Assembly: GCA_965223325.1 (NCBI GenBank)
Contig: CBDCWI010000002.1
Coordinates: 320,001-384,000, forward strand
Reading direction: 5' to 3'
DNA length: 64,000 bases
Source: Candidatus Multivoradales bacterium
GTDB lineage: Bacteria; Acidobacteriota; Thermoanaerobaculia; Multivoradales; Multivoraceae
The notes under the pieces are model-generated. The model made no database searches and had not been told where the DNA came from. It worked only from the letters and a program-made list of their open reading frames with translations. The translations under genes were made by a program, and so were the position numbers. Positions 40,101 through 52,902 of the stretch are shown here, piece after piece; the first letter of the stretch is position 1; each line of letters starts with the position of its first letter.

Positions 40101-40879
40101 TAGTCGTACTCGAGGTCGCCGTCGTTATCGAAGCCCTTGTTGATGTTGCCGAGGTCGTAGTTGATGCCGTTGGTGGTGACCAGGGTTCCCACGGCGACGG
40201 TGTCGGTGGCAACGTTGAACCACTGGCCGTCCTGAGGGTAGATCTTGTTGGCATTGGCGGAGATCTCATTGCGCATCGTGGCGCGTTGGCTGGCCACGAG
40301 GGGAGCCGGGCTCTCGGCCGAGGTTCCCCAGACGTCGTATTCCAGCCACAGATCGTCATCAGGGTCGCTGGCGACACCCCACACGGCCGGCCCGGTGTTG
40401 TTGGGGTTGCCGCGCCGGGGGTAGGTCACCTGCCAGTACTGGGAGACACACTCGGCGGGGGAGAGGATGTCGAGGTAGCGGCCTGCATCGGACACCGCGC
40501 CGAGGTGGGTGAGCGCGTAAAGGCCACTGTTGGCCAGGTGAGGATGCTCCGCTTGAAAGGCGGCGGCGCTACTGTCGCGGGCGGGATAGACGCCAGGCGA
40601 GAGGGCCGTTGAATCACCGATAAAGCCCTGCACGTCACTTAGCGGCGCGTCGCCATCGTTACAGAACCTGGCCATGACCGTGGCCACCGCAGGCGCGTAG
40701 GTCGAGGGCGAGGTGACGTTCGAGTCGACGACGAAGTTGTAGCCAGCGACGATCTCGATCGAGAGGTCACCGGCCGCGACGAGGGCGCTCGGGGCGAGGT
40801 GAAAGACACCGAGGAGCAGCAGACCGATCCACACTGTACGACAAGGAGCGGTCTCAAGAGGCGGTCTGGGCGGAGGCAT
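28139..40879 (-). CDS. Giant secreted protein (~4,246 aa): DUF11-like and ~17 SdrD B-like repeats plus a C-terminal C25 (gingipain/PorU-like) cysteine peptidase
   Basis: Signal peptide after ATG 40879; repeated IGD.VW.D.DGDG...DFGY units; three ITKS/LEKS DUF11-like domains; C25 motifs EYLIIAP, IYDAFSYG, YVVLLGRGS, IGRIP, NFLGHGG (His 28613-28615), ALTCSAG (Cys 28511-28513), YHLIGDP. Confidence 0.9.
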   Translation of the reverse strand: MPPPRPPLETAPCRTVWIGLLLLGVFHLAPSALVAAGDLSIEIVAGYNFVVDSNVTSPSTYAPAVATVMARFCNDGDAPLSDVQGFIGDSTALSPGVYPARDSSAAAFQAEHPHLANSGLYALTHLGAVSDAGRYLDILSPAECVSQYWQVTYPRRGNPNNTGPAVWGVASDPDDDLWLEYDVWGTSAESPAPLVASQRATMRNEISANANKIYPQDGQWFNVATDTVAVGTLVTTNGINYDLGNINKGFDNDGDLEYDYNAWLQPVGDPAHDPTCFRLVRTYGTLTIKRSGGDPDLVINFEDQLYFTDLPPDNTGGRGEVHYEFLALRGGCSIGMSPYQEVASGADNEKFTGDYGISLPKIGTYAPEITLEKSVNLVSVAPGGTLLYSIQVDNDAVTPAGDPALGVPLVVTDSIPANTTYVAASAQITLGYTPNTPALILYSTDGRLTWTATEPGDPATVTDLRWWLRDPLPASGSVTPSFEVQVDSPFSGLPFIDNEAELGFGEAPPFARDSTVSLVTGSNSIGDVVWHDADGDKSVDAAETGIASILVELYWDANGDGSLDSSDLLITSAVTNGSGAYSFANLPDGDYIAVVDRADPDLPDGYAPTTRTALAVTDLGGVTTSPYAAADFGFQAGLVITKSLTSSDPAAEGELVTFEIDVTNNRSGTSYVAPADSCVMTRWAESYDAANTTFDLSPADGLGPPDGFSAGVSSLWAGEYRGTGFDWTGGTGTIENVQLVMRVTKVSTLSNDTFHFVYSEDGVATSACPTPNSWTSMPSSSHHQDTLMICDVTALQTWDWAALSDPNFYVSAVMVTAGSSDDANPQLDAIGVRVTKQGCLSGGARRATTFDAAAGTTLEPLVHAVSPSAEIAEKTTSSPVGGIATTISPALPGNELPSVKRSETNLAGSWSNARQNARDFVERRALGGPCQVETWSMEHLIRDNWPPYPGVVSGSPPATLAALDGSYEPAPFGSATYANPQWAVGYLPHNFLKIETFIHFYIDSAVSNDVLNIGLTDGSNLITIDSATLNNHIGVGNAGTIVTDVTSLSFHRISSNNGRYSKIRYYPASVGGNDGVTLYIDAIGIRITLEECSKALSGGTLSPLPLVDTFDADQLQFQWSDPPANSLSFTTTPYANTGVLAWNDLGPLDSRETASVTATFLALEPPDNDGDGENDVATTTNTAATNGAQYLDGFAIADVTASDTVDVAPRGTISGTVFSDDGSGGGTPGNGIRDGAEPGVPGVTVELWSDPNNDGNPSDGVRLVSQQTEADGTYRFDGLADGSYVALVLPATLPGSTFTQTGDPDFVGVCGVCDDRGGAPLANADGLASNDDAVLDFGYTLPNTIFGTVWRDLDGDGVQETGEPGLDSVQVDLKDCGANTICGDGDDGPTVSLNTDSAGQYLFSDLANGSYVVSIISATLPAGGTWNQTGDPDATLDHMTTISVAVAGGQVKGSYDFGYQESGSSTIGDLLWTDWDGDGQVDSGEEGIANVSMLLYEDEDGDGVIESADGLVASTSTNSSGAYLFTGLVAGSYVVVVDEGDPDLPDGYLQSSDPDEPIACNTCDAQGSASVDGSDSVLTMDFGYLPTGSGTIAGVVWTDADRDAIYDAEEASLGGIKVSLYEDDNGNGAVDAEDALIGSLSSDGAGGFRFDSLPGGNYVVDIDTSDTDLPNDSNGNRYILSTQNDPEQVALTAGETRADLEFGFAPPGTIGNSVWRDDDRDALYDLYEIGIANVTVWLYQDTNGDSLYTPGTDVLRGTTTTDAQGEYWFRGLVPDDYIVRVDSSDPDLPSSTLVGDPTETGPCTVCDGVLAVELRAGQLVNFADFGFQAPGSIGNAVWLDSNGDGLYSVSSELGLANVQLNLVDASLSVVASTTTDSEGFYAFGDIADGNYTVAVVTASLPASVVLFYDPDEGAGCTVCDHVGSVSIASGSVDYTIDFGYQVGASSQLSITKSSSAGGGPVNPGSVINYNVTVLNSGALPVTEVSISDPLPNGTTYVPGSAQLSGMIVGTGDYRDEFTATYPDPGYNGSDGTLDWSPNAWSEINDDGSPSGGDVQVLTDSGDLSLGIQKSGRGAQRGFDLTGSTAATISLDYRRAGFDGASDYVTLDISYNGGSSWTELTRFAGPATDSAYQNFSIALDPATYLDSNPADNLLRLLSSGLANNGSDDFYADSITIDVTSRALRTVGAQAPALMVPPGPDVYLLSGESLSLTFQVVVDDPLSSAVSQITNRAGASSRETIEPIFAMTIDRVSRGGIIGDRVWHDVDGDGSQDVGEPGLANVTVLLTDPGGDGQPGGGDDTVVGLATTDINGSYRFSALSPGVYFVDVTDATVPGALSLTAGGSDPSSVRTVTANETFLDLDFGYTNTSTTRAVIGDRIWSDADADGLQDPSEAGLGGVTVQLLNEAGTVVLTTTTAADGFYLFDDVVPGSYSVEVAASNFSAGQVLSGYSVTSGPQSPGTDQSAPIVVEAGDAHLDADFGYDSAATRSITDRVWFDANADTFVDIGERGLEGVTFSLLDSHGDVVASTVSDGSGFFTFTGLAPGSYVLQVTDVHAQLLGLTGTTTAALNSRLPLSVTTGNLSGASFGYNVPGAIGDMVWSDVDADGVLDPDEVGIANVTVNLWRDADANGVFDMLLDTPLLSTVTDGAGYYRFESLAAGTYFASIDGSQAALTGYTATTADQELGANAPGIQIEATLISVLAGYLDADFGFQNAVLADVSGTIFDDRDRDGVNDGAGEPGIAGVTLALEDMSGNVLATTISDASGAYAFRDLAAGNYRVVVTDDDDVLADAQLTSGLDALPVALGATNVGDVDFGYNRTQERGTIGDTVWFDANRDGVMSGAENGLSGVVVELWEDSNGDGLRGAGDTLLETTTTDLAGSYLFSGLAPGNYFVDPDESTLPAGFGATPGTGPASPMVALAAGTDDDTADFGYAPTVGSALGDTVFFDADGDGIQDPGELGIAGVDVTVTGPGGYNVTVTTDAYGNYLATGISTTGVYNVSVDTSKLPAGLDPNPTSFPLAAMNFAVDAGTDWLFADFGFQETVPGTGFATIGDLVFLDANGNGSRDAGESGIGGVSLSLFDSGGSLLATTMTAADGRYSFSGLAAGDYTVEVTDTVGLLVGFNLSAGSNPTATITVVAGDNHDSADFGYAPGAGLGTIGNLVWHDKNGDGSHDPGEPGIEGVTVALWLDSNNNSTVEPGVDNLVREAITDRNGEYYFLALPPEDYLASVSDERLVLEGLSRTQGVTQTDGESQADPYAVTLSPGVRAPSDFTADFGFTVSSTSYKIVGTVFEDGNANGVLNGGEAGVGGAVLSLYRDLDGDGVLDLTDPFFGAVTSLANGTYAFIGLPGSSDWLIVSDLSGTSISGAEQTTQLATAGVQPVSIAAVDPPPQDFGYARPVTRALLASVSASSLGDSTVLEWSTASEEGTLGFIVSRFSTALGWVPVHEGVLPAEVFAPAGATYRLLDHDATASEPQLYLLEEVELSGATRHLGVFEVRADTRAAAIGAAFESIPNAPTKSPLSPPAARALLPAAISGPRAHIGVSRDGIHFLSTQEVASAMTISRDAAASLIASQGLRLSRAGEEIPWWSLDGSGLSFYAFGAPSLFHSGSVYQLERRLGIEVTERVAEAGAREVAAPAVLSPLRFENDVFPATAAARDPEREFWFWSVHGTSHSSLLEKTLILELPHYVPEALSTVIEVDVFGATDGLEVMDHGLSLQVDGVPVGTVSFPGREHRTLRFEVPPGVISASTIRLDLVAVAMPGVSRSIFYVDGLTVSYPRRPILDGSGRLRFFGGDSLVEVTGLGNGGGVMLDVTDPSQPMVILPTAGDDGAAGSSIVFWSDSTRTYEVTARDSLLRPSLVRPAATATRLDAYAAEYLIIAPLALMDAGDALADYRATWSGLSTSVVPVEAIYDAFSYGEANPWAVREFLRRAFDRWSTVPRYVVLLGRGSMDYRDALQNGDNLLPPALVATPHGLYASDSALADLTTSPGLEVAIGRIPISNAAELSAYLEKVEWFERSAGDPAGTISFLSDNPDYAGDFPRDSSLMSSIVPADLSVNEISLSSLSLTEARAQTRQSFASGSVLMNFLGHGGLDRLAAEGLLTVADVSDLQTGPLFPVVSALTCSAGRFEVPQYVSLAEKLTLEPRRGAVAVLAPSGLSVHDEAVELGRQLLAQVLAGKPQRLGDVWLHSLGTIAPQTRFDDLAKIYHLIGDPALELPSLGNSTSPEILFADDFEGGGVGAWDNTSR

Positions 40880-40899
40880 GATCGTTGGACGGCAGAAGA

Positions 40900-41110
40900 A
40901 CGAATCAGAACGGATAGTCAAACAGCAAGTATAAATATTATAACGCAAATAACGGAGAAAACCACTTTCAATAAGCAAGAAAGTCGCCCTGGGGGCCCCT
41001 TCAAAAACAGACCCCGAGCCGGTCTGTCTCCCATCCTGCATCGCGTCCGATAAGATAGATTATGTCAACCTATCAATGAGAGCCGGTCTCAAGTAACGAA
41101 TCGTCTCCAG
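40900..41110. promoter_or_regulatory. AT-rich divergent promoter region between the giant gene and the lipoprotein
   Basis: Sharp local AT enrichment; TATAAT on minus strand at 40937-40942 and TTGACA on minus at 41063-41068 (not paired at canonical spacing). Confidence 0.45.
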
Positions 41111-41734: not shown

Positions 41735-42604
41735 CTAGGCCTCTTCCAGCTCTCGGAGCTCACTCAGGATCTGCTCCAGCGCCCCGATGAGATCCTGACG
41801 ATCGACCTCTTCTTGACGAAACGTCAGGGAGAGGTCGAAGCGCTTGTCGGGGGCCTTGAACTTGAAGACGTAGGGCTTCGGCCGCGCTGGCTTACCCTTG
41901 TCGCTGTCCTTCTTGACCGCCCGGCGCACGTCCTTACGGCTCAGGCCGAGGCTCGAGATGCGCTCGAGCAGTAGGATCATCTCGTCCTCGTCATCGAGTT
42001 TCATGACCTCGAGGAGAACCGTCTTGGAGTCGATGCCCAGCGCGTCGACCGCCGAGCGGACCCGCTTGGGCATCTTGAGAAGGCTCAAGCTCTCGGTCAC
42101 CGAAACCCGTGACTTCCCCACCGACCTCGACACTTCTTCATGAGTGTAGTCGTGCTGGGTGGCCAGCGCTCGATAACCCTCGGCCTCTTCGAACGGGGTC
42201 AGGTCTTTGCGCTGCAGGTTCTCGATGAGCGCGATCTCGAGCGCCTCGCTCTCCGAGATGTCCATCTCGATCGCCGGGATTTCGTAGAGGCCCGCTTCCA
42301 TCGCGGCACGGTAGCGGCGCTCGCCAGAGATGATGCGGTAGCCGGTACCGTCTTCGCGGGAACGCACCAGAATCGGCTCGAGAACCCCCTTCTCGCGCAC
42401 CGACGACACCAGGTCCTGAAGGTCGCCCAGCTGAACTCGCGGCTGGTTCGGATCAGGTTCGATGGCCGAAAGCGCAATCATGCGACCGACGGGAGCTTCG
42501 CTGCGACCAACGAGTTCGTCGACGAAGTGTGCCTCATGGCGCATGCGCACTTTCGACGGTAGGCCTCTCTTCTTCGAACTGCGGCTGGTAGCGGGTTCAG
42601 ACAC
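41735..42604 (-). CDS. parB: ParB/Spo0J family partition protein (divergent DNA-binding domain)
   Basis: PDPNQPR, GVLEPILVR, IISGERRYRAA, ALIENLQRKDL; GTG start overlaps the parA end. Confidence 0.88.
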   Translation of the reverse strand: MSEPATSRSSKKRGLPSKVRMRHEAHFVDELVGRSEAPVGRMIALSAIEPDPNQPRVQLGDLQDLVSSVREKGVLEPILVRSREDGTGYRIISGERRYRAAMEAGLYEIPAIEMDISESEALEIALIENLQRKDLTPFEEAEGYRALATQHDYTHEEVSRSVGKSRVSVTESLSLLKMPKRVRSAVDALGIDSKTVLLEVMKLDDEDEMILLLERISSLGLSRKDVRRAVKKDSDKGKPARPKPYVFKFKAPDKRFDLSLTFRQEEVDRQDLIGALEQILSELRELEEA

Positions 42605-43358
42605 GGGCCAGAACCTCCTCGGACAACTTGTAGTACTCGAAAGCACCGGATGAACGCGGGGCAAAGGTAAACACAGACTCGCGATGGGCGGGACTCTCCT
42701 CGAGCCGCACGCTCTTCGAAATCACCGTCTCAAAGAGCTTGTCGCCAAAGACACCGGCAATCTCTTGATGAACGTCGCGCGCTAGCAGGGTGCGCTTGTC
42801 ATGCAGCGTGATCACCACTCCGAGCAGTTGCAACCCCGGGTTGGCGCGCCGCTTGAGCTTGTCGATCGTGTCGAGCAGATCGTCGGTTCCCTCGAGGGCG
42901 AAGTAGCTCGACTGAATCGGAATCAGAACGTGCTGCGCAGCGACCAGTGAGTTGACCGTGATCACACCCAGGGTCGGCGGCGTGTCGATCAGAATGTAGT
43001 CGTATTCGTTGCGTAACGCCTCGAGCTCGTCTTTGAGCCGGTAGTCGCGGTCGATCTCACCCAGCAACTTGGCTTCGAGCTTCGCCAGCGCGATCGAAGA
43101 CGGTGCGACGAAGAGATTCGGAACCGTAGGCACCGGCATGATGACGTCGGCGATCCCCACGTCGGGCTCGGTCATCGCCTGGAACATCGTCTGGCCGACG
43201 ACCGTTTCGGGCTCGAGAAACGACATGGTGCTGTTGGCCTGGGGATCGAGATCCAACAGCAGGGTCTTGCGCCCCTTCGAGGCAATCGCCGCCGAGAGGT
43301 TGATGGCGGTGGTGGTCTTCCCCACTCCGCCCTTCTGATTCGTAATCGCAATGACCAT
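42597..43358 (-). CDS. parA: ParA/Soj family ATPase
   Basis: NQKGGVGKTTT deviant Walker A, DLDPQAN, IDTPP, VRLEESP. Confidence 0.93.
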   Translation of the reverse strand: MVIAITNQKGGVGKTTTAINLSAAIASKGRKTLLLDLDPQANSTMSFLEPETVVGQTMFQAMTEPDVGIADVIMPVPTVPNLFVAPSSIALAKLEAKLLGEIDRDYRLKDELEALRNEYDYILIDTPPTLGVITVNSLVAAQHVLIPIQSSYFALEGTDDLLDTIDKLKRRANPGLQLLGVVITLHDKRTLLARDVHQEIAGVFGDKLFETVISKSVRLEESPAHRESVFTFAPRSSGAFEYYKLSEEVLARV

Positions 43359-43371
43359 GGGGAGCGGGCGC

Positions 43372-43401
43372 AGTGTAGAGCACCGCTTCATGCAGGGTCA
43401 A
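43372..43401 (-). promoter_or_regulatory. Sigma70-type promoter for parAB
   Basis: Minus strand TTGACC-18 nt-TACACT, ending 13 bp before the parA ATG. Confidence 0.55.
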
Positions 43402-43435
43402 CGATAAAACCACTCAAAAGGCGAATTCGTGAATC

Positions 43436-43453
43436 ATGTCGGCCGGCCGACAT
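43436..43453. repeat. Perfect 18-bp palindrome ATGTCGGCCGGCCGACAT
   Basis: Read directly; lies between the nuclease gene stop and the parA promoter. Confidence 0.85.
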
Positions 43454-43462
43454 CGTACGCGC

Positions 43463-43963
43463 TTACATCGTGTACTTGCCGAGATCGTCGGGACCGAGCT
43501 CTTCGAGCATCTTGCGGACCTCGTCTGGATCTTCGGTATCGACCCCTTCGGTCCTGGTCACCGCCTTGGCGCGGTCCAGCACATCCTTCTCGACGTAGAG
43601 CGACGCGCCGCTGCGGACGGCGAAGGCGATGGCGTCACTCGGCCGCGAGTCGACCCGGATCGTCTCGCCACCTCGGTTCAAGTAGAGCTCGGCGTAGAAG
43701 GTCTGGCCTTGCAGGTCGTTGATGACGACCTTCTCGAGCACCGCGCCGAGGTCGGTGACCACCGCACTCAACAAGTCATGGGTCATGGGCCGCGCGCGAT
43801 CGATCTTCTCGAGCTCGATCTGAATCGCGCTGGCTTCGAAGACACCGATCCAGATCGGCAGGAAGATCTGCTCCGCCTCATCGCGCAGGATCACGATCGG
43901 ATGGTTCGATGACGGATCGATCATCAACCCACGCACCGACATCTTGACCAGGGTGTCAGGCAC
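43463..43963 (-). CDS. Bifunctional nuclease family protein (DUF151)
   Basis: LPIWIGVFEASAI, RPMTHDLL, DSRPSDAIAFAVR. Confidence 0.92.
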   Translation of the reverse strand: MPDTLVKMSVRGLMIDPSSNHPIVILRDEAEQIFLPIWIGVFEASAIQIELEKIDRARPMTHDLLSAVVTDLGAVLEKVVINDLQGQTFYAELYLNRGGETIRVDSRPSDAIAFAVRSGASLYVEKDVLDRAKAVTRTEGVDTEDPDEVRKMLEELGPDDLGKYTM

Positions 43964-45338
43964 TGCGATCCTCCCGAACGTCGCGTGCGGTCCTTACCCG
44001 CCGCGGCGCGACCACCAGTTCCCCCAGCAAGCTGTGGTCGTTGGCATGCTGGATCTGAACTGGAACGATCGTCCCGGCGGTCACCGAATCGCCAGCCGCA
44101 AAGTGCACGATGCGGTGGCACGGCGTCCGTCCACTCCTGTACCCGTCCTGGCGACTGCGACCGGTGACCAGAACCTCGTGCGTCTCGCCGATGAGCGCCT
44201 CGTTGAGGGCGCGCTGGATCGGAGTCTGCAAGGCAAACAGATCCTGCAGGCGACGGTCGGCCACTGCGAGGGGAACCTCTTGATCGGGAAGTCGCAGAGC
44301 CGGAGTGCCCGGACGTGGCGAGTACTTGAAGGCGAACACCTGGCTGTAGCGCACCCTCTCGACCAGGTTCATGGTCTGCCTAAAGTCCTCCTCGGTTTCA
44401 CCCGGGAAGCCGACGATGATGTCGGTCGACAGTGCCAGGCCACAGCGCGCGTCGCGCAAGGCATCGACCAGCGCAAAGTAGCTCGCCACGTCGTATCCCC
44501 GACCCATGCGCTTGAGGATCTTGTCGGAACCCGACTGGACCGGCAGATGAACGAAGGGACAGATATTCGCATGACGCGCCACCGACGCCACCATGCGGGA
44601 GCTGAAGTCCCGCGGGTACGAGGTGATGAACCGCAGCCGGGCGAGCCCAGGAATGACCGCGATGCGGTCCAGCAGGTCAGCGAAGTCGAGCGCCCGGCCA
44701 CTCCCCCGCCCGTCTTCGGGCTCGCGCCAATGGTTGACCGTCTGCCCGAGTAGCTCGATCTCCTGGAAGCCTTCGGCGACCAGCCGCTCGGCCTCGGTCA
44801 CGATCTCGGCCAACGGCCGGCTGCGCTCTGGACCCCGGGTGGTCGGGACGATGCAGAAGGTGCAGCGCTTATCGCAGCCTTCGATGATCGTGATCATGCC
44901 CTTGTGCGAATCAGCACGGGCAATGGTGTCCATGTCGTAGTGGCGGTCCTGCGGAAAGCCAGTCGCCAGAACGCGCTCGCCGCGTTGCGCCCGCTCGACG
45001 ATGCGCCCAAGTTCCCCGACGCGACCCGTACCGACGACGAAGTCCAGGTCTTTGACCCGTTGGAGAGCCGCCTCGCCCTCCTGTTGAGCGACACAGCCGC
45101 AGAAACCAATGACAAGGTCAGAATTGTTTTCTTTCAACGACCGATAACGGCCGAGCTGCGAGTACGACTTTTGCGCCGCCTTCTCCCGCACGCTGCACGA
45201 GTTCAGGAGAATCACATCCGCTTCTTCAGCCGATTCGGTGCGCTCCATGCCCTGTACCGCGAGCTGCCCCGCCATGCGCTGCGAGTCGAGCTCGTTCATC
45301 TGGCAGCCCCAGGTCTCTACGAAAAAGCGCTTTCCCAT
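43956..45338 (-). CDS. miaB: tRNA-2-methylthio-N6-dimethylallyladenosine synthase
   Basis: TWGCQMNELDS, NSCSVREKA, radical SAM GCDKRCTFCIVP, STDIIVGFPGET, YSPRPGT, TRAM domain. Confidence 0.96.
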   Translation of the reverse strand: MGKRFFVETWGCQMNELDSQRMAGQLAVQGMERTESAEEADVILLNSCSVREKAAQKSYSQLGRYRSLKENNSDLVIGFCGCVAQQEGEAALQRVKDLDFVVGTGRVGELGRIVERAQRGERVLATGFPQDRHYDMDTIARADSHKGMITIIEGCDKRCTFCIVPTTRGPERSRPLAEIVTEAERLVAEGFQEIELLGQTVNHWREPEDGRGSGRALDFADLLDRIAVIPGLARLRFITSYPRDFSSRMVASVARHANICPFVHLPVQSGSDKILKRMGRGYDVASYFALVDALRDARCGLALSTDIIVGFPGETEEDFRQTMNLVERVRYSQVFAFKYSPRPGTPALRLPDQEVPLAVADRRLQDLFALQTPIQRALNEALIGETHEVLVTGRSRQDGYRSGRTPCHRIVHFAAGDSVTAGTIVPVQIQHANDHSLLGELVVAPRRVRTARDVREDRSA

Positions 45339-45493
45339 CCTTGCGATCACCTCACACGGATCCATGAGCCCTGGCGGCCGTCCAGAGGGGAGCGACTGTC
45401 GGGCGAGCTGCGAAGGTTACTACGGGACGGGGCCGCCGCACTGCCCGCCGCACTGCCGGCGCCACCCCGCGCGGCGTGGGGGCCAACCTCGTT

Positions 45494-46099
45494 TCAGTCC
45501 TGGCTACGGTTACGGTAGAGCTCGGGGTCGACGACCTCGGCCATCTTGCGGTAGGCCTCCGCGCGACCGACGAATTCCGCGATCCGCCGTGCCTCGTCCT
45601 CGGGGGAACCGAGGACCTCACGGTAGTGCACGTCGATCCACTCGAAGGCTGGATCGTTCTTGAGCAGATACCCCACCCGCCAGAGATGGTTCTCGTAGGC
45701 GTCGGTCATCTGCGCATCGGCGGCGTCGTCCTGCTCCTCGCGGTGATCGAGCATCTTCTGCTGTGAAGCCAGCACTTCGCGCAGGTCACGGCGCATGAAG
45801 ATGACCTTGTAGTTGTTGTCGCGCGGCAGGTCCTTGAGCAGAAACGAAATGACTTTGATCGCCTTGCCGCGCGAAGCCCGCAACCAGGACTTGTCTGCCA
45901 TGCCTTCGAGGTCCTTGACCCGCTCGTCCTCGAAGTAGCCCTTGGGGTTGTCGATATCGGCTTCACGCTCGTTATCGGTCACCACGCTGAGTCCGGCTGC
46001 ATCGAGCATCTTCATCGCCATGGATGTGCCCGAGCGCGGCAGCCCGGAGACCACAACCACCGGTGGCCCTTTGGTCAATCGTCGAATCAACTTACGCAT
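45494..46099 (-). CDS. Sulfotransferase family protein
   Basis: 5'-PSB loop VSGLPRSGTS, NPKGYFE, 3'-PB-like FMRRDLREVLASQ, HYREVLGSP. Confidence 0.85.
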   Translation of the reverse strand: MRKLIRRLTKGPPVVVVSGLPRSGTSMAMKMLDAAGLSVVTDNEREADIDNPKGYFEDERVKDLEGMADKSWLRASRGKAIKVISFLLKDLPRDNNYKVIFMRRDLREVLASQQKMLDHREEQDDAADAQMTDAYENHLWRVGYLLKNDPAFEWIDVHYREVLGSPEDEARRIAEFVGRAEAYRKMAEVVDPELYRNRSQD

Positions 46100-46431
46100 C
46101 AATCAGCTCACTGGAATCGGAGGTTAGCGGGAGCGTGCGCACCCTAGCAGGAGTCGCCGGCTTCCTGGGGCCTCCCGGGCACTCTCCGCGGTCGAGCGGC
46201 CCATCGGTTGCGACACCATCGGAGGGCACCGTATGCTCTTTCGCGAACCCGAGCCGGTTGTCTTCCGGCCGCCTGTTCACCGACTTCTGGCGGTCGCTGG
46301 CCCAGCTCCCGATGATCCAGCTTCGGCTGTGCACCGCCCGGGCGCTTTGCACCAACTCGCCGCGCGGTGAGGCCTGCCCGAAGCCCGCCCGAGCTTCCGA
46401 TTCACCTTCACCCCCTCCAGTAAACAGCGAT

Positions 46432-48666
46432 ATGAAAGCCAAGCCCCAGAGGTCCATCACCCGCCAGAGAGCCGCCGCCGGCGACGCCAGCACGATCAAC
46501 AAACGCGGTGTCACCACCGTGGTGTTCTTCGCCGCCCTGGGACTGGTTGCGTTGCCGGGCTTCGCCCACGCCTACATCGGTCCCGGCGCAGGCGTCGCGC
46601 TTCTGTCGTCGTTCGCGGTGCTCTTTGTCACCATCATCATCGCCCTGGCCGCTGTCCTGGTGTGGCCCTTCCGCACCCTCTACCGGATTCTGCGACGCAA
46701 GAAGCCGCCCAAACCACTGGTCAAGCGGCTGGTCATCGTTGGCTTCGACGGCCAGGACCCGCGCCTCACCGACCAGTACCTCGCCGAAGGCAAGCTGCCG
46801 AACTTCGAGCGCCTCGCCAGGCGGGGCGGCTACCGCAAGCTGCGCACGACCTTCCCGTCGTTGTCGCCCGTCGCCTGGTCGAGCTTCAGCACCGGAACCA
46901 ACCCCGGCAAGCACAACATCTTCGACTTTCTCGACCGCGACCTGCGCAGCTACCTGCCGACCCTCTCCTCCACTGCCATCGGCCGGGTCGAACGCTTCCT
47001 GAAGCTGGGCAAGTGGCGCATCCCGCTTCATAAGCCGGAGCTGCGCCTCCTACGCAAGTCGAAACCGTTCTGGTCGATCCTCGGCGAGCACAACATCTGG
47101 AGCACGGTGCTGCGCGTCCCGATTACCTTTCCGCCCGACAAGTTCTACGGTGCGCAGCTCGCCGCAATGTGCGTTCCAGATCTCCTCGGTACCCAGGGCA
47201 CCTTTCTCCTGTTCACGACCCGACCGGCAGAGGGAGAGTTCAAGGAGGGCGGCCTGCGGTTCGAGCTCCCAGACTCAGGTGGCAACCACTTCGAGACCCA
47301 GGTCGAGGGTCCAGAGAACACCTTCTTGCCACCCGACGAGGATGGCGACGAACCCAAACTCACCACGCCAATGACCATTCGCCTCGACCGCTCAGAAGGT
47401 CTCGCGCACATCGAAACCGGTGATGAGAGCCTGGTCCTGCGGCCGGGTGAGTTCTCGCCCTGGGTGACCTTGACGTTCAAAGCGGCGCCCGGAGTCAAGG
47501 TCCACGGCATCTGCCGCATGAAGGTCACCGAAATGCCCGGCCATGACGAGAGCGAGCACTTCTCGCTCTACCTGACACCGCTCAACATCTCGCCTGACAA
47601 GCCGGCCATGCCGATTTCCCATCCGTCGTACTACGCCACCTACCTGCAGAAGGTCGTCGGCGACTACTGCACTTTGGGGCTCGCCGAAGACACCTGGGCA
47701 CTCAACGAAGGGATCACCGACGACGGCACCTTCCTCGAGCAGACCTATGACATCGATCGCGAGCGTGAAGAGATGTTCATGGCCTCACTCGAGAAGCTCA
47801 AGAAGGGCGCCCTGGTGTGCGTCTTCGACGCCACCGACCGCATCCAGCACATGTTCTGGCGCTATCACGAGAAGGGTCACCCCGCTGCCGCCGGCATCGT
47901 CGACCCTGAGCACGGCGACGCGATCGAGAAGCTCTATCGCCACAACGACGAGCTCCTCGGCCGGGTGATGGAAAAGCTCGATGACGACGACCTGTTGATC
48001 GTGCTCTCAGACCACGGCTTCGACTCCTTCCGGCGGGGTGTCAATCTCAACCGCTGGCTGGTCGACCAAGGGCTCCTGGTGCTCAAAGAGGGCACCGACG
48101 GTTCGAGCGAGTGGCTGCGCGATATCGACTGGTCGAAGTCGAAGGCCTATGCCCTGGGCCTGTCAGGAATCTTCCTCAACCTCGCCGGCCGCGAAGAACA
48201 GGGCATCGTGCAGCCAGGCGAGGAGGCGCGCGCCGTCAAGCAAGAGATCATCGAGGGTCTCGCCGGCATGATGGACGAAGAACGTGGCGAGGTCGGCATC
48301 ATCGAAGCATTCGACACCGAGGTCATCTATTCGGGACCCTACCGCCGCAACGCTCCCGACCTGATCATCGGTTTCAACTCCGGCTACCGCACCTCATGGG
48401 ACTGCGCGACCGGCCAGTCTCATGGCCCGGTCTTCGAAGACAACACCAAGGCCTGGAGCGGCGACCACTGCATCGATCCGCGTTTGGTACCCGGAGTCCT
48501 GTTCTCGGACCGGCCCATCGAGAACGAAGATCCGTCGCTTCTCGACCTGGCCCCAACCGCGCTCCAACTGTTTGGTATCGACGCCCCGGCACACATGGAG
48601 GGCGAGGCGCTGTTCTCCGAAGCTGCAGTGAATCGAAAGACGACCCAAGAGCGCGACGCCGCCTGA
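46432..48666 (+). CDS. Membrane-anchored alkaline-phosphatase superfamily protein (type I phosphodiesterase/nucleotide pyrophosphatase-like)
   Basis: GFDG, TFPSLSPVAWSSFSTGTNPGKHNIFDF, DRIQH, LSDHGF, WSGDH, DLAPT; N-terminal signal plus TM; start uncertain. Confidence 0.88.
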   Translation: MKAKPQRSITRQRAAAGDASTINKRGVTTVVFFAALGLVALPGFAHAYIGPGAGVALLSSFAVLFVTIIIALAAVLVWPFRTLYRILRRKKPPKPLVKRLVIVGFDGQDPRLTDQYLAEGKLPNFERLARRGGYRKLRTTFPSLSPVAWSSFSTGTNPGKHNIFDFLDRDLRSYLPTLSSTAIGRVERFLKLGKWRIPLHKPELRLLRKSKPFWSILGEHNIWSTVLRVPITFPPDKFYGAQLAAMCVPDLLGTQGTFLLFTTRPAEGEFKEGGLRFELPDSGGNHFETQVEGPENTFLPPDEDGDEPKLTTPMTIRLDRSEGLAHIETGDESLVLRPGEFSPWVTLTFKAAPGVKVHGICRMKVTEMPGHDESEHFSLYLTPLNISPDKPAMPISHPSYYATYLQKVVGDYCTLGLAEDTWALNEGITDDGTFLEQTYDIDREREEMFMASLEKLKKGALVCVFDATDRIQHMFWRYHEKGHPAAAGIVDPEHGDAIEKLYRHNDELLGRVMEKLDDDDLLIVLSDHGFDSFRRGVNLNRWLVDQGLLVLKEGTDGSSEWLRDIDWSKSKAYALGLSGIFLNLAGREEQGIVQPGEEARAVKQEIIEGLAGMMDEERGEVGIIEAFDTEVIYSGPYRRNAPDLIIGFNSGYRTSWDCATGQSHGPVFEDNTKAWSGDHCIDPRLVPGVLFSDRPIENEDPSLLDLAPTALQLFGIDAPAHMEGEALFSEAAVNRKTTQERDAA

Positions 48667-48760
48667 TCGAGTGATCAGCGTACGGCCTGAGTCCAGCGCA
48701 CAACAGAACCCTCAAGCACACACACATACGCCGCCCATCGCGGCGAAGGAGCCTCGCAAC

Positions 48761-48955
48761 ATGTTCGGTGGAAGCAAGATCAAACTCGACAAGGACCTCC
48801 TCGACAAGGTCAAGAAGTACGCAGACATCGCAGGCTACTCCTCGCCCGAGGAGTTCATCACCCATGCTCTCGAAAAAGAGCTCGCCAAGCTCGAAGACGC
48901 CGACTCCGAAGAAGAGATCCGCAAACGCCTGAAGGGCCTTGGCTACATTTCCTGA
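48761..48955 (+). CDS. 64-aa ribbon-helix-helix-like microprotein with C-terminal RLKGLGYI tail
   Basis: AAGGAG RBS; KIKLDKDLLDKVKKYA..AGYSSPEEFITHALE follows the RHH beta-alpha-alpha pattern; clean codon usage. Confidence 0.8.
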   Translation: MFGGSKIKLDKDLLDKVKKYADIAGYSSPEEFITHALEKELAKLEDADSEEEIRKRLKGLGYIS

Positions 48956-48993
48956 TCCCACGGCCCGAGCCTCAAACTCCCAGCAGTCCCACT

Positions 48994-49821
48994 ATGAACG
49001 CCTTCTTCTCCCTGCTCGCAGGTCTGACCGACCTCCTGATGCGTCCCTTCGTCAACCTGCCGTTGATCGTGCCGGTGACGGTGATGGCAGCCATCGCCAC
49101 CGTCTTGTTCCTCCTGGTCTACCGGTGGACCTCGAACCAGGAGGGCCTGGTGCGGGTCAAGAACAAGCTGGCGGCATCGTTCTTCGAGATCAGGCTCTGG
49201 AACGACGACATCGGAGCCATCTTCCGCGCCCAACGCGACCTTTTGTGGAACAACCTCAAGTACATCGGCCTCAACCTGGTGCCGATTCTCTGGTTGACCA
49301 TTCCGTTCGCGCTCGCGATGGGGCAACTGCAGGGCTACTGGGGCTACGAGCCCTTCCTCCCAGGTGAAAGCCGCGTCGTCCGCGCCGAAGTGCTCGGCGA
49401 GATCGCCTCCGCCGGGCGACCCGATCTCGAGCTCGAACTGCCCGAGGGCATCACCTTGACCGCCCCACCGGTGTGGAGCAGAAAAGCTCACGAAATGGCG
49501 TGGCAGGTGCGCGCCGAGGCCCCCGGCGCCTACGAAATCGCCCTCCGCCTCGGCGATCAGACGACAAACAAAGCCGTCACCGTCGGCAAGGGAGCACTGC
49601 GCCGTTCACCGATTCGCGCCAACGGCAATTGGATCGATCGCATCCTCTACCCATCAGAACCGGCTCTCGATGAGGCCACCGGCCTCAAGCGCATCACCAT
49701 CGACTACAACGACGCCGAAGTCGACATGGGGTTCTGGTCGATCCACTGGCTGGTGCCGTTCCTGCTCCTCACCATCGTCTTCGCCTTTGCCATTCGCGAG
49801 CGCATGGGCGTGACGTTCTAA
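48994..49821 (+). CDS. Membrane protein, Oxa1-superfamily-like (DUF106/EMC3/TMCO1 pattern) with an inserted soluble domain
   Basis: Amphipathic N-terminus, TM1, helical hairpin (SNQEGLVRVKNKL...QRDLLWNNLKY), TM2 LVPILWLTIPF, beta-rich insert, terminal TM WLVPFLLLTIVFAF. Confidence 0.6.
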   Translation: MNAFFSLLAGLTDLLMRPFVNLPLIVPVTVMAAIATVLFLLVYRWTSNQEGLVRVKNKLAASFFEIRLWNDDIGAIFRAQRDLLWNNLKYIGLNLVPILWLTIPFALAMGQLQGYWGYEPFLPGESRVVRAEVLGEIASAGRPDLELELPEGITLTAPPVWSRKAHEMAWQVRAEAPGAYEIALRLGDQTTNKAVTVGKGALRRSPIRANGNWIDRILYPSEPALDEATGLKRITIDYNDAEVDMGFWSIHWLVPFLLLTIVFAFAIRERMGVTF

Positions 49822-49916
49822 CTGGAGACCCGGGGCAGCCTTGAAGGCTCCAAGCACCTGCTAGCGTGGCCAGCAACCAAGGAGGCTCTGCAACCGGTGT
49901 CGCAATCTCAAGGCTC

Positions 49917-50050
49917 GGCAAGTTTCGCGACGAGTGCCTCAACCAACACTGGTTCGTCGACCTGGCCGAAGTGCGAAGAGCAATCGAGACTTGGAGAGTC
50001 AGTCGACTACAACTGCGAGCGACCCCATGGCTCGCTGGGCGGCTTCGCCA
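49917..50050 (+). mobile_element. IS3-family transposase integrase-core remnant (frameshifted)
   Basis: GKFRDECLNQHWFVDLAEVRRAIETWRV, then after a 4-bp AGTC duplication (49997-50004) DYNCERPHGSLGG, the IS3 C-terminal signature. Confidence 0.85.
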
Positions 50051-50206
50051 GTGCGACGGTTCCAGGCTAATGCAAAAGAGCGCTTCGGTGTACCTTCTCG
50101 CCGTCCGGGCAAGTTTCCCGCTCCCGATCGTGGAGTCATTCTTTGAAACAGCGGAGCGCCGCCAACGAGGCATGACGAGTCGGTAGTTCACAGCGCCAAA
50201 CGCCCG

Positions 50207-50254
50207 TGCCACCGGAGACGATGCCACCGGAGGCGATGCCGCCGGAGACGATGC
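50207..50254. repeat. 3 x 15-bp tandem repeat (TGCCACCGGAGACGA variants)
   Basis: Read directly: tgccaccggagacga / tgccaccggaggcga / tgccgccggagacga. Confidence 0.8.
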
Positions 50255-50299
50255 GGTCGAACAAGCTTGCTGCGAAGGAACGCAGCATACAGATGTCAG

Positions 50300-50767
50300 C
50301 TAGCGCACGCAGGCACCGCCCTTGTAATGACCCAAGGGACAGGTCCACAGCTCGGGATTGACGGGCCGCCACTCCAGGTCGACAAAGGTGACGGTCGGCT
50401 CGGTTACCGCCGGCGACATGCCAGAAACCACCGCCAGGATCGCTGTCGAGGGCGCGTCAGACACCAGGCGCGTCACCGTGAGGGAGACCAGCGAAGTCCA
50501 TGCACAACCCGCGACCCCACAGCCACCGCCGCCGAGCGACAGGGACTCGTAGCGCACCTGGTAACGCTCGCCGGTCTTGTCGCGCAGGAACCGGACAACC
50601 TGCGGATGAGCCCGCACCGCCTCAACGGCCGGGTCTTCATCCTGCGCCGCTGCGGGTAGAACCAAGACCATCGCCAGAGCGGCCAGGAATACGCCAGCCA
50701 GGAAAAGTAGAACGAAGGACGTCGGCTGTTGGCCGTTGGTTGTCTCTTCTGTCGTCGAGAATGGCAT
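50300..50767 (-). CDS. Hypothetical secreted protein with four cysteines
   Basis: GGAGG RBS; signal peptide ending AAA-Q; CGVAGC and C-terminal C...C. Confidence 0.7.
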   Translation of the reverse strand: MPFSTTEETTNGQQPTSFVLLFLAGVFLAALAMVLVLPAAAQDEDPAVEAVRAHPQVVRFLRDKTGERYQVRYESLSLGGGGCGVAGCAWTSLVSLTVTRLVSDAPSTAILAVVSGMSPAVTEPTVTFVDLEWRPVNPELWTCPLGHYKGGACVR

Positions 50768-50781
50768 AGGACATCACCTCC

Positions 50782-52902
50782 CTATTCTTCGATGTAGCCA
50801 AGTCGTTTGAGTTCCTCGGTGGTCTGCGGATCGAGACTCCAAGCGTCGACAGGTTCTCGGCCATCGCCAGAGCTTTCGCCCAGTCCCAGCTGGCGGCGGG
50901 CCCTTTCGATCCCTTCCAGCACCGCCTGTCGCCTCTCCTGCAATTGCGCGACTGAACGGTCTCCATCGAGGCCGTCGAGAGCCAACGGTCGTTGATCGCC
51001 AGGGTCGGTGCTCCGATCGAAGACCGCCGACCGCGCGGTGTCGTTCGCTTGAATGAGTTTCTGACCTCGCCACACCATCGCACTGTGCCAATCGCCGCGC
51101 CGCGTGTGACTCATATAGATCGCCCGCTCGGGCCCTCCGGTGAAAAGAGAAGGCTCGACAAACCCTCGGACACCCGCCGGGACCTTGACGTGCGCCTCGG
51201 CGAGAAGACTGCGAAAGAGGCCCGCCGTCGAGCGCGGCGCGTCTTCGCTTGCGGCGCGGCGGCCGGGAGCCTTGAGGAGGAGCGGCACGCGAACTACCTC
51301 GTCGTAGAAGGTGTGCCCATGTTCGAAGCCGTCGTGCTCCCAGAACTCCTCACCGTGATCACCCACGACCGCAATGACGGTCTGCTCCCACCGCCTCGAG
51401 CGCCGAATCTGAGCGAACACCTCGCCAAGGGCCTGGTCGACGGCCCGCACCTCGGCGTCGTAGAGCGCTTCGATCGCCCGCTTCTCAAGGGCCGTGGGCG
51501 TGAACTGCCCGCTCAGAACTTCCTGCAGTTGCGAGAAGCGACCGCTCGCTAGACGCTCTGGGAGATCCTTCGGCAACCCGGCGGCGGGCGGTGCGTAGGG
51601 CAGATGCGGATCGAGCAGATGGAGCCACAAGAAGTACGGCCGACGCTCGGCACCGCTGGTCAACTGGTGCAGGAGATCTTCGGTTTCCGCTCCCAGCTCG
51701 GCGGTATTGCGATGGGTGGCAGCCGCCAGAACCGGCCAGGAGCGCGCCACTCCGTCGCGTGGTACCGCAACCGGGCGCAGCAGGCGCGCTCCGAGGGCGG
51801 AGCGCGGGCCGATGCGCGGAAACACCCGCCAGTGGTCGAAACCACGCCGCAACGTACCGAACTGGAGGTGGACTGAGGCTGCTACCGCTCCTGTTCGGTA
51901 GCCCGCGCCAGCCAACGTCTCGGCCAGGGTTGGAAGAGCGAGCGGAACCGGCTGGCGCATGTCGACGACCTCGTGGACGGCCGGCAGGAGCCCAGTGTGC
52001 AGACTGGCCAGAGTCGGGAGGGTCCAGGGAGCGACGGTCAGCGCTCGCTCGAAGCGCACCGCCTCAGAGCCCAGGGCCACCAGGTTCGGCATCAGCTCCT
52101 CAGTGAGTCGATCCGCCCGCAGGGTGTCGACAGTGATGAGAACCACATCGGGTCGTCCGTCGGCTTCTTCTGCGGCCGAAACAGAGGTCCCCGGCTTCTG
52201 TGCCCCGGCCCACGATCGTGCAACAACCACCACCAGAAACAAGAAGGCCACGACAACCACCGCGCGGGCAAGGCGCCGAGGCCAAGGGCTGCGGCGGATG
52301 AACCAGAACAGCAAGGCGCCGAGGGCAACGATCACCAGCCCATCGAGCCAGCGGCCCGGACCCGACATGTCGCGCCGCTCAACCAATGCGCCCATCCAGG
52401 GCCCGCCGAGGCGTAGGGCGACCCAGGTCAGGCCAAGAACGGCGACCGCCGAGACTCCCTCGAGCATGCGCCGGAAAAACTCGACGCGCTCGAGACCTGC
52501 CCGCCACAGGAGGGCCGCGACTGCCAGCGAAGTGACAACTGGCACAGCCACCTGCCAGGCTGCCGGGCCGCCGCCCGAACTGGTGGGAACCAGGGTGCTA
52601 CAAAGAGCCGCGACCGCCAGACCGATCAAGCCGCCCGCGGTCGCCAGCGCGACGGAGCGAGAAGCCGTGAGTGGCGAGCGCCCGGACAGTCTCACGAAAA
52701 GGGCGACGACCGCCAGTGAGGCGAGGGCCAGCACAACGCTGGTCGCGAGCGGCAGAATGAGGAGGTCGAAGGTCGTCGTTCGCACTCGCTCACGAACGAG
52801 TGCAATGACGAGGTCGAATGAACCGAACAACATGGCACCCGCCAGAACGGTTCGCAGCAACGGCCAGTTCATCCCGCCCGCGATGGTCTCGCGCACCTTC
52901 AT
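50782..52902 (-). CDS. Multi-TM sulfatase-like hydrolase/transferase with C-terminal LKRLGYI tail
   Basis: ~7 TM N-terminal domain; VVLITVDTLRADRL, APWTLPTLASLHTG, LDPHLPY, GDHGEEFWEH, HGH, VRVPLL; ATG 52902 overlaps the addA stop. Confidence 0.88.
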   Translation of the reverse strand: MKVRETIAGGMNWPLLRTVLAGAMLFGSFDLVIALVRERVRTTTFDLLILPLATSVVLALASLAVVALFVRLSGRSPLTASRSVALATAGGLIGLAVAALCSTLVPTSSGGGPAAWQVAVPVVTSLAVAALLWRAGLERVEFFRRMLEGVSAVAVLGLTWVALRLGGPWMGALVERRDMSGPGRWLDGLVIVALGALLFWFIRRSPWPRRLARAVVVVAFLFLVVVVARSWAGAQKPGTSVSAAEEADGRPDVVLITVDTLRADRLTEELMPNLVALGSEAVRFERALTVAPWTLPTLASLHTGLLPAVHEVVDMRQPVPLALPTLAETLAGAGYRTGAVAASVHLQFGTLRRGFDHWRVFPRIGPRSALGARLLRPVAVPRDGVARSWPVLAAATHRNTAELGAETEDLLHQLTSGAERRPYFLWLHLLDPHLPYAPPAAGLPKDLPERLASGRFSQLQEVLSGQFTPTALEKRAIEALYDAEVRAVDQALGEVFAQIRRSRRWEQTVIAVVGDHGEEFWEHDGFEHGHTFYDEVVRVPLLLKAPGRRAASEDAPRSTAGLFRSLLAEAHVKVPAGVRGFVEPSLFTGGPERAIYMSHTRRGDWHSAMVWRGQKLIQANDTARSAVFDRSTDPGDQRPLALDGLDGDRSVAQLQERRQAVLEGIERARRQLGLGESSGDGREPVDAWSLDPQTTEELKRLGYIEE

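Follow-up and report, generated by a model that had tools for sequence, protein, structure and literature searches.

We analyzed a 64,000-nucleotide stretch of G+C-rich DNA (G+C content about 0.62 to 0.67), hereafter the window, from a Candidatus Multivoradales bacterium of the phylum Acidobacteriota. In it a sulfotransferase, an enzyme of the alkaline phosphatase (AP) superfamily, a microprotein and an Oxa1-like membrane protein are encoded by a conserved gene unit. This cluster is kept across hundreds of soil and marine bacteria. We propose tentatively, at somewhat less than an even chance, that it is a conserved and undescribed ester-transfer system spanning the inner membrane, in which a group would be loaded inside, handled outside and end up on an envelope component. 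The sulfate donor 3′-phosphoadenosine 5′-phosphosulfate (PAPS) stays in the cytoplasm, which is why sulfation outside the bacterial cytoplasm is an open problem. The unit joins a sulfotransferase and a PAPS supply with paired AP-superfamily enzymes, predicted to face opposite sides of the membrane, and with a bacterial protein of the DUF106 branch of the Oxa1 superfamily.

A sequence-only reading of the window had grouped the four genes with a fifth, encoding an AP-superfamily enzyme with multiple transmembrane segments (the multi-TM enzyme), and knew of no characterized pathway with this composition. We likewise found no published account of such a unit in the literature, supplements left aside. 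A re-check of open reading frames (ORFs) and Pfam domains found all five genes where they had been placed (Table 1). The ORF of the membrane-anchored AP enzyme, AP1, opens at position 46024, and its probable start codon is at 46432.

Table 1. Features of the unit and its surroundings, in window positions.
Feature	Position	Strand	Remarks
Sulfotransferase	45494..46099	-	201 aa; Pfam Sulfotransfer_3 (8e-12), Sulfotransfer_1 (7.8e-07)
Divergent intergenic region between sulfotransferase and AP1	46100..46431	.	Bounded by the two genes
AP1, membrane-anchored AP-superfamily (NPP/PafA-like) enzyme	46432..48666	+	744 aa; Pfam Phosphodiest (5.6e-31)
AP1 predicted signal peptide, residues 1-47, ending in AHA	46432..46572	+	'...GFAHA' directly before YIGPGAG
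YIGPGAG, AP1 residues 48-54, predicted periplasmic N terminus of mature AP1	46573..46593	+	
Microprotein, with ribbon-helix-helix (RHH)-like N-terminal part, acidic linker and tail	48761..48955	+	64 aa
Microprotein tail LKGLGYIS, residues 57-64	48929..48952	+	
DUF106/Oxa1-like membrane protein	48994..49821	+	275 aa; own sequence without Pfam or NCBIfam match
Multi-TM Thr-type AP-superfamily enzyme, tail LKRLGYIEE; membership doubtful	50782..52902	-	706 aa; Pfam Sulfatase (2.3e-28)

The conservation of the unit was assessed from the membrane protein. Its relatives in the protein collection (35 sequences, 34-46% identical), several of which one source labels 'DUF106 family', were used to build an alignment, A1, which was scanned against one genome per prokaryotic species. 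A relative was found in 219 stretches, and the best 80 were fetched. All 80 loci come from metagenome-assembled genomes, labeled by their depositors as Acidobacteriota of several classes (62), Gemmatimonadota (6), Eiseniibacteriota (2), Myxococcota (1), 'Gammaproteobacteria' (3) or unclassified (6). The recurrent gene order is the sulfotransferase on one strand and, divergent from it, AP1, often a second AP-superfamily gene (AP2), the microprotein and the DUF106-like protein. Genes were counted by tblastn with the window proteins in loci with sufficient flanks, set at at least 300 nt for the microprotein, at least 2.5 kb for any AP gene and at least 5.6 kb for AP1, AP2 and the sulfotransferase. 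The microprotein gene lies at most 400 nt upstream of the membrane-protein gene in 78/78 loci, and an AP gene is present at the unit in 70/70; AP1 was found in 61/61 loci, AP2 in 54/61 and a sulfotransferase on the opposite strand in 52/61. Identity to the window proteins is 70-91% for the microprotein, about 60-70% for AP1 and about 40% for the membrane protein.

The genes also co-occur at the level of whole genomes. Among 151 genomes of the phylum, evenly drawn and, being related, not independent of each other, the membrane protein was present in 43, the microprotein in 41 and a sulfotransferase orthologue (E≤1e-30) in 37. One unpublished genome has all three genes, and its removal lowers the counts to 42, 40 and 36 of 150, with 29 for membrane protein and sulfotransferase together. 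With it, these two occur together in 30 genomes, the membrane protein only in 13, the sulfotransferase only in 7 and neither in 101; because of the kinship among the genomes, the Fisher value was given no weight. The microprotein never occurs without the membrane protein, and two genomes with the membrane protein fall below the microprotein threshold. Thus both synteny and phylogenetic profiling bear out the grouping of the four genes in the sequence-only reading, which had staked itself on their co-occurrence.

The position of the sulfotransferase gene varies. In five genomes (G136, G112, G076, G033 and G015, two of them confirmed by a closer look) it directly follows the membrane-protein gene on the same strand, and in several others it is distant from the unit. 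Its adjacency in differing gene orders indicates that the link outlasts rearrangement. The 13 genomes that have no sulfotransferase orthologue still hold AP1, AP2, the microprotein and the membrane protein, sometimes with a third AP paralogue, AP3. Sulfation therefore cannot be the sole job of the core.

The sulfotransferase scores above the curated Pfam cut-offs (46.3 bits against 27 for Sulfotransfer_3 and 29.2 against 22 for Sulfotransfer_1). Residues S18-S26 (SGLPRSGTS), R104 and S112 are invariant in 32/32 aligned sequences, and the protein carries a C-terminal LYRNR motif. We take the PRSGTS-type loop to be the 5′-phosphosulfate motif and the R...S pair to be the 3′-phosphate motif. Family profile and motifs thus assign the protein, by prediction, to the PAPS-dependent sulfotransferases. 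A phmmer search against the PDB gave no match, and in a profile search TPST2 (E = 0.00096) and TPST1 came out best, the TPST2 match being local and limited to the PAPS loop (query positions 8-33).

The link to PAPS that had been read from this motif is reinforced by the neighborhood of the unit. Conserved ORFs of the loci were clustered and scanned against Pfam, which revealed proteins with PUA_2, ATP-sulfurylase and APS-kinase domains beside the unit, encoded by one fused gene or by two genes; elsewhere CysD-like and CysN/C-like genes take this place. At least one PAPS-synthesis gene was found near the unit in 18/54 loci with an 8-kb upstream flank, and a CysQ-like gene of the inositol-monophosphatase family, a candidate for phosphatase of the by-product 3′-phosphoadenosine 5′-phosphate, adjoins the unit in 9 loci. 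That non-orthologous PAPS-making genes lie beside the same unit argues for a functional tie. In the genome of the window, the PAPS synthase is encoded away from the unit. In L015, L016, L023, L067 and L077, four of which are labeled Marinacidobacterales or plain Acidobacteriota, the PAPS synthase gene upstream of the unit is itself preceded by one for a protein with DUF4388 and PilZ domains (of the type that binds cyclic di-GMP).

AP1 matches the Phosphodiest family (PF01663) at 108.8 bits, against a cut-off of 23, and its catalytic domain covers about residues 96-744. The metal ligands and nucleophile, D106, S145, D469, H473, D527, H528, D678 and H679, are invariant or nearly so. In a phmmer search against solved chains no match at E≤0.01 was found. 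Foldseek with an AlphaFold2 (AF2) model gave as best matches SPAP, PafA, bacterial and human nucleotide pyrophosphatases/phosphodiesterases (NPPs) and phosphonoacetate hydrolase, with E values of 4e-06 to 1e-03, those of SPAP, PafA and the NPPs being 4e-06 to 1e-04, and about 12% identity. Profile, metal ligands and nucleophile thus place AP1 in the NPP/PafA clade of the AP superfamily.

The N-terminal part of AP1 is unusual. A positively charged start, a hydrophobic stretch, residues of the cleavage type and the sequence Y-[IV]-G-P-G-A-G follow each other in 63 AP1 frames; position -3 is A in 59, V in 3 and L in 1, and position -1 is A in 59 and G in 4. Y48 and G50-G54 are invariant. The YIGPGAG peptide, which the sequence-only reading had singled out, is present as described and occurs once in the genome. 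It is followed by an uncharged helix of 26 residues, then by 22 residues with a median of 8 Lys plus Arg and 0 Asp plus Glu across the 63 frames, and then by the first metal-binding motif, VVG[FL]DG. Signal peptidase cleaves after small residues at -3 and -1, and positively charged flanks of membrane helices stay inside. By these rules, the succession of signal peptide, seven residues, helix and K/R-rich stretch predicts a mature AP1 that spans the membrane a single time, its first residue, Tyr48, being outside and its catalytic domain in the cytoplasm.

AP2 is about 37% identical to AP1 and retains its catalytic residues. Its N terminus carries a strict lipobox in 39/52 frames and a looser Cys box or an AxA site in 9 of the 13 others, so that AP2, with a lipoprotein-type or ordinary signal peptide, is predicted to be exported. 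In the genome of the window AP2 is absent from the unit and an orthologue, 41% identical to the AP2 of L016 used as query, lies on the other contig (the genome comprises 6.69 Mb in two contigs). Its neighbors there, encoding an FG-GAP protein, MscS, Lgt, a TonB receptor and one enzyme with the C-terminal LGY tail described below, are uninformative. AP3 is a soluble paralogue of the Phosphodiest family, only about 430 aa long, in which LK[NQ]LGY occurs internally. It lies upstream of AP1 in L018, L021, L028 and L041 and is also present in L099; these five loci, like L100 and L102, have no adjacent sulfotransferase gene. It may be that AP3 and the sulfotransferase are alternatives to each other.

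These paralogues raise another explanation, namely that the unit is a phosphoester system. AP1, AP2 and AP3 would remodel a lipid head group or polymer linked by phosphodiesters, in the manner of NPP, LtaS, EptA or OpgB, the tail would be a peptide for non-covalent docking, and the sulfotransferase would decorate the target in some lineages. The persistence of the core without sulfotransferase, in loci that hold AP1, AP2, the microprotein and the DUF106-like gene, is as this explanation predicts, as are the full NPP-type set of metal ligands and nucleophile in AP1 and AP2 and the phosphatases and phosphodiesterases among the nearest folds. However, PAPS-synthesis genes directly precede AP3 in L018, L021, L028, L041 and L099 (an APS-kinase domain in the latter), so that they adjoin AP genes where no sulfotransferase is adjacent, and the sulfotransferase itself is linked to the core in two gene orders. 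We consider a phosphoester system possible, on balance unlikely. Even if the chemistry proved to be that of phosphoesters and not of sulfate, the unit offers an experimental handle on dark protein families of abundant soil and marine bacteria.

Hydrophobic segments are absent from the microprotein. Its family comprises 3035 clusters in the protein collection, and in 32 aligned sequences M1, A24-Y26, E31, F32, A36, L37, E40, L44, L57 and G59-Y62 are invariant. Relatives of only 36-43% identity retain 'GYSS' and the exact end L.GLGYIS. The matches of its N-terminal part to RHH families are below threshold (PSK_trans_fac, 17.4 bits against 28.3, E = 0.0084; NikR, E = 0.031). The best PDB match of its profile, the C terminus of a eukaryotic ribosomal protein uL13 (4v91 chain O, '...KQLAALGYMS', E = 0.013), is probably a chance match. 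Among 24 longer proteins that seemed to be microprotein fusions, five with PF01663, the four that we inspected (P0156, P0161, P0165 and P0172) look like frameshifted gene calls; we rejected them because they contain out-of-frame stretches and the microprotein's own start.

The sequence-only reading had pointed out that the microprotein and the multi-TM enzyme end in similar LGYI tails, which is correct (Table 1). Across the whole genome, L..[LVI]GY[IVLM], with no more than three residues after it, closes only 18 of 78,905 stop-to-stop frames of at least 50 aa, and 15 of those 18 encode AP-superfamily enzymes, which argues for a common tail beyond chance. We compiled the AP-superfamily frames of the genome by hand, merging rows of one frame and dropping one sub-threshold row. 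L..LGY[IVLM] sits about 100 residues past the Pfam domain in these frames; 26 of the 46 have it, 15 at the very end and 11 with 4-333 residues after it. Wherever a nucleophile motif was found by pattern in the LGY-bearing frames the nucleophile is Thr, the six CxPxR sulfatases of the genome all lack the motif, and signal peptides of the lipoprotein type are frequent among the LGY-tailed enzymes. It thus seems that the motif is the hallmark of a large uncharacterized subfamily annotated as sulfatases.

When 25 tails are aligned, about 14 residues after a variable linker prove conserved, and the last 16 columns of the microprotein profile align to the tails of the AP enzymes (hhalign probability 75.7%, E = 2.4e-05). 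This match suggests that the tail is provided in cis on exported Thr-type AP enzymes and in trans, by the microprotein, beside the tailless AP1. No matched solved structure covers the tail. Judged from the alignments, the LGY tail and the predicted exposed YIGPGAG are the most conserved features of the unit.

The RHH matches suggest a simpler role for the microprotein, as the repressor of an operon for scavenging phosphatases or sulfatases; the PAPS genes would then come from sulfur assimilation and the DUF106-like protein would be unrelated. Besides these weak matches and a CopG/Arc/MetJ label from one source, this explanation has in its favor that AP2 and the downstream enzymes resemble exported hydrolases with lipoprotein signals. 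It does not account for the 70-91% identity of the microprotein across phyla, against about 40% for its neighbor, nor for an invariant C-terminal tail that is common to enzymes, nor for the constant company of the DUF106-like gene in the 151 genomes. Furthermore, so conserved a repressor would be expected to have a common operator, whereas no 8-mer is common to more than 10 of the 53 intergenic regions between sulfotransferase and AP1. To our knowledge, a sulfotransferase has no role in sulfur assimilation either. We therefore regard a repressor function as very improbable, and the co-fold described next, which passed its controls, also speaks against it.

We modeled AP1 (residues 96-744) together with the sulfotransferase and two copies of the microprotein, using custom alignments, in one co-folding job, a check that the sequence-only reading had suggested. 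The score was 0.78 (0.81, 0.78 and 0.70 in the individual runs), compared with 0.00 and 0.01 when the partner was replaced and 0.48 when AP1 was replaced. In calibration the mark was reached by 58/80 solved complexes and 2/110 mismatched pairs, although the job was unlike those of the calibration, which thus holds only roughly. At least 76% of contacts are common to the runs, and the predicted local distance difference test (pLDDT) value of the partner is 70 or higher. Microprotein residues 24-35 make the closest contacts, with AP1 residues 154-160, 209-211, 635-637 and 721, and both microprotein tails (55-64) lie in the interface. Residues 21, 62-65, 84-87, 113-117 and 130-144 of the sulfotransferase are touched. 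Invariant residues make up 26/51 of the AP1 interface versus 174/598 elsewhere (odds ratio, 2.5), and G635-P636-Y637 are specific to AP1. The interface partly includes stretches that are poorly modeled in AP1 alone, the two models being from different programs. The co-fold supports binding of the microprotein to AP1.

The contacts of the sulfotransferase bear on a further possibility, that it acts as a tyrosine sulfotransferase of the RaxST/RaxX kind. Its acceptor would be Tyr62 in the microprotein and, perhaps, the C-terminal LGY tails of AP enzymes that await export; the end product would be the sulfated protein or a peptide clipped from it, which the AP enzymes would edit or use. TPST2 and TPST1 are indeed the best solved relatives (E about 1e-3), the protein belongs to Sulfotransfer_3, and an invariant Tyr follows an acidic stretch. 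In the co-fold, sulfotransferase residues 21, 84-87 and 113-117 touch the microprotein, the score of 0.48 is kept without AP1, and M16 peptidase genes lie downstream of the unit in six loci. Nevertheless, the TPST match is marginal and local, the tail is equally invariant in genomes that have no sulfotransferase, no exporter is conserved in the unit, and conservation extends over the whole microprotein and not just a core peptide. Tyrosine sulfation as the end point thus appears improbable to us.

The membrane protein was modeled by AF2 from alignment A1 with a pLDDT of 90.5. In the model, a helix at the N terminus precedes the first of three membrane helices; a long helical hairpin connects membrane helices 1 and 2, and a beta domain of some 130 residues, immunoglobulin (Ig)-like and spanning about residues 120-250, is inserted between membrane helices 2 and 3. 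Foldseek against the PDB gave Ig-like matches to the beta domain only, none at E≤0.001. In a structure alignment against 48,161 chains TMCO1 of the multipass translocon (7tut_8) came out on top, with Z 11.2, a root mean square deviation of 3.6 and 135 aligned residues over model residues 20-275; the following rows had Z 8.4 or less, among them YidC of Bacillus halodurans (3wo7_A; Z 7.7, root mean square deviation 6.1, 148 aligned). Pfam EMC3_TMCO1 (PF01956) is matched by 9/28 relatives (best 6.8e-07). The window's own protein gave no match to it at E≤1. The earlier label 'Oxa1-like' therefore holds for the fold and the relatives and lacks a Pfam match of the protein itself. On the model, we accept an Oxa1-superfamily fold of three helices and a coiled coil, with a putative insertase activity. 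The charges predict a cytoplasmic hairpin and a periplasmic Ig-like domain. A separate, normal YidC is also encoded in the genome.

The fifth gene of the sequence-only reading fared less well. The multi-TM enzyme has seven hydrophobic segments in a simple hydrophobicity scan, and its T-L-P-T-L aligns to the S(C)-A-P-A-R (C-x-P-x-R) of choline sulfatase. The description as a membrane sulfatase-like enzyme is thus right as to the Pfam Sulfatase domain and the membrane segments, but the formylglycine position is occupied by Thr and not by Cys or Ser, so that the enzyme does not fit the formylglycine (S1) sulfatases. NCBIfam models of the LtaS/EptA/YejM families do not fit either (YejM, 28.9 bits against 825; EptA domain, 12 against 500). 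The gene converges on the unit across a gap of 960 nt, and its ATG overlaps the stop codon of addA (ATGA, window 52899-52902). Beyond it, at higher window positions, lie the genes for AddA, with UvrD-type helicase domains, and AddB, a PD-(D/E)XK nuclease, and it is probably co-translated with this addB-addA operon; such translational coupling to addA points to another context for the enzyme. Two other loci have addA converging on the unit, L001, the closest relative, and L075; in both, addA directly follows the membrane-protein gene and the multi-TM enzyme is absent at this place. By our own estimate, the chance that one of 15 tailed paralogues lies within a few kb is about 0.01, unlikely but possible. 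We thus take the enzyme to be a paralogue tied to addA, whose membership in the unit is doubtful. Downstream of the gene, at 50300-50767 on the minus strand, an ORF of 155 aa has a signal-anchor but matches no Pfam family.

At the level of the family, LGY-tailed Thr-type AP enzymes do recur beside the unit. They lie at most 3 kb downstream in 15/64 loci, on the same strand in 12 of these and often as two copies, and in 21 of the 27 frames of this cluster L..LGY[IV] stands one or two residues before the end. These enzymes are predicted lipoproteins whose N-terminal domain measures about 330 residues, and 'WTKVS', with Thr, takes the place of the sulfatase Cys or Ser, so that they do not fit the formylglycine sulfatases either. 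The multi-TM enzyme is only 26-30% identical to them over the catalytic domain and has seven hydrophobic segments in place of their lipoprotein domain, the hydrophobicity scan having shown that they are not multi-TM; orthology between the two was therefore rejected. The LGY tail unites a large set of uncharacterized Thr-type 'sulfatase-like' enzymes, for which annotation as sulfatases is routine.

Gene linkage, motifs, folds and predicted topology can be combined into a working scheme of ester transfer across the inner membrane, whose every chemical step, direction of flow and target we infer. The catalytic domain of AP1 would reside in the cytoplasm, and cleavage of the signal peptide would leave the seven residues YIGPGAG on the outer face. 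The microprotein would dock on AP1 and provide in trans its E-rich linker and L..LGY[IV]x tail. The Oxa1-like protein, with its periplasmic Ig-like domain, would insert the AP1 hairpin or form a membrane groove beside AP1. In most lineages the PAPS-dependent sulfotransferase would join this core, fed by the PAPS synthase and cleared by the CysQ-like phosphatase. A sulfated or phosphoester-linked group would be made or loaded at the inner face, by the sulfotransferase and the pair of AP1 and microprotein. On the outer face it would then be handled by AP2 and by the lipoprotein enzymes with LGY tails, and its end point would be an envelope component.

In a more specific form of the ester-transfer scheme, the Tyr of L..LGY[IV] would be a covalent shuttle, like that of DltX, whose cargo would be a sulfuryl or phosphoryl group. 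Loading would take place in the cytoplasm, by the sulfotransferase or AP1, the N-terminal Tyr of AP1, exposed by signal peptidase beside the hydrophilic groove of the Oxa1-like protein, would pass the group to the periplasmic AP2 and the LGY-tailed enzymes, and AP-superfamily enzymes would use the aryl ester of the tail as donor. We hold this chemistry to be decidedly improbable; if true, sulfate would cross the membrane on a protein carrier, to where PAPS is absent.

Several observations weigh against ester transfer across the membrane. In 13 of the 43 core-bearing genomes no sulfotransferase orthologue was found at E≤1e-30, and seven genomes of the same sample carry a sulfotransferase without the core. 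The microprotein family is labeled by sources as a CopG/Arc/MetJ regulator or RHH protein. The LGY motif, present in 26/46 AP-superfamily frames, may be a general feature of the family that is unrelated to the unit. The control with AP1 replaced, at 0.48, indicates that part of the co-fold score comes from the sulfotransferase or the second microprotein copy. The cytoplasmic location of AP1 is a prediction from the positive-inside rule, its paralogue AP2 is predicted to be exported, and the AF2 model of AP1 alone is fair to mediocre (pLDDT 68.5).

Other genes around the unit were also noted. A 980-aa M16 (insulinase-type) peptidase is encoded directly downstream of the membrane-protein gene in L004, L007, L029, L035, L046 and L066, and a 46% identical orthologue lies about 97 kb from the unit in the genome of the window. 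Just upstream of the sulfotransferase gene, at 41735-45365, lie ParB-like, ParA-like and MiaB-like genes, named by sequence only, and one for a BFN_dom protein (Pfam), ordinary housekeeping genes that are not kept beside the unit in other loci. A 4300-aa ORF at 28139-41041 on the minus strand, with 16 SdrD_B repeats, CarboxypepD_reg and SpaA-like domains and a C-terminal Peptidase_C25 (gingipain-type) domain, appears to encode a giant surface protein that ends in a protease.

Several known systems resemble parts of the unit. Characterized NPP and PafA enzymes are extracytoplasmic. AP1 shares their fold and catalytic residues, but it is only about 12% identical to them, has a beta-rich insert of about 200 residues and, departing from the location of its clade, is predicted to be cytoplasmic and tethered to the membrane. 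LtaS, EptA/MCR, OpgB and YejM are membrane-anchored AP-superfamily enzymes with a Thr or Ser nucleophile that act on envelope molecules. The window's multi-TM enzyme has their layout, whereas the predicted topology of AP1 is opposite, with the catalytic domain inside, and the LGY tail extends beyond the matched solved structures. As in RaxST/RaxX and TPST, a small PAPS-dependent Sulfotransfer_3 enzyme is encoded beside a protein that has a conserved Tyr and is about 60 aa long; unlike there, the unit has no peptidase-ABC exporter, and its AP enzymes and Oxa1-like protein have no counterpart in those systems.

The membrane protein shares three membrane helices and a cytoplasmic coiled coil with TMCO1, EMC3, Ylp1 and YidC. 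It differs from TMCO1, EMC3 and the archaeal Ylp1 (DUF106) in being bacterial, in its 130-residue Ig-like insert and in its constant pairing with the microprotein. DUF106 is described as archaeal and eukaryotic (PMC5868721), and, as far as titles and abstracts show, none of the literature on DUF106 and the Oxa1 superfamily in bacteria appears to concern a bacterial DUF106 cluster.

The closest parallel in logic is the Dlt system of DltB (MBOAT), DltX and DltD (SGNH), in which an envelope polymer receives a group that comes from a donor in the cytoplasm, and which has a microprotein with an invariant Tyr motif near the C terminus (PMC12148441). This motif is in trans on DltX beside the MBOAT protein and in cis on related enzymes of other pathways (PMC12148441), much like the LGY tail. 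DltX, though, is a membrane protein with an extracellular FXYXXF motif (PMC12148441), whereas the microprotein of the unit lacks a hydrophobic segment and ends in L..LGY[IV]x. The unit has no MBOAT, SGNH or carrier protein, no membrane microprotein and no FXYXXF, and its proteins are unrelated to those of Dlt. Compared with all these systems, in which each of the families is known, what is new is their combination, an AP enzyme predicted to be turned inside out with its N-terminal Tyr exposed, a DUF106-type protein in bacteria, and a tail that is used in cis and in trans.

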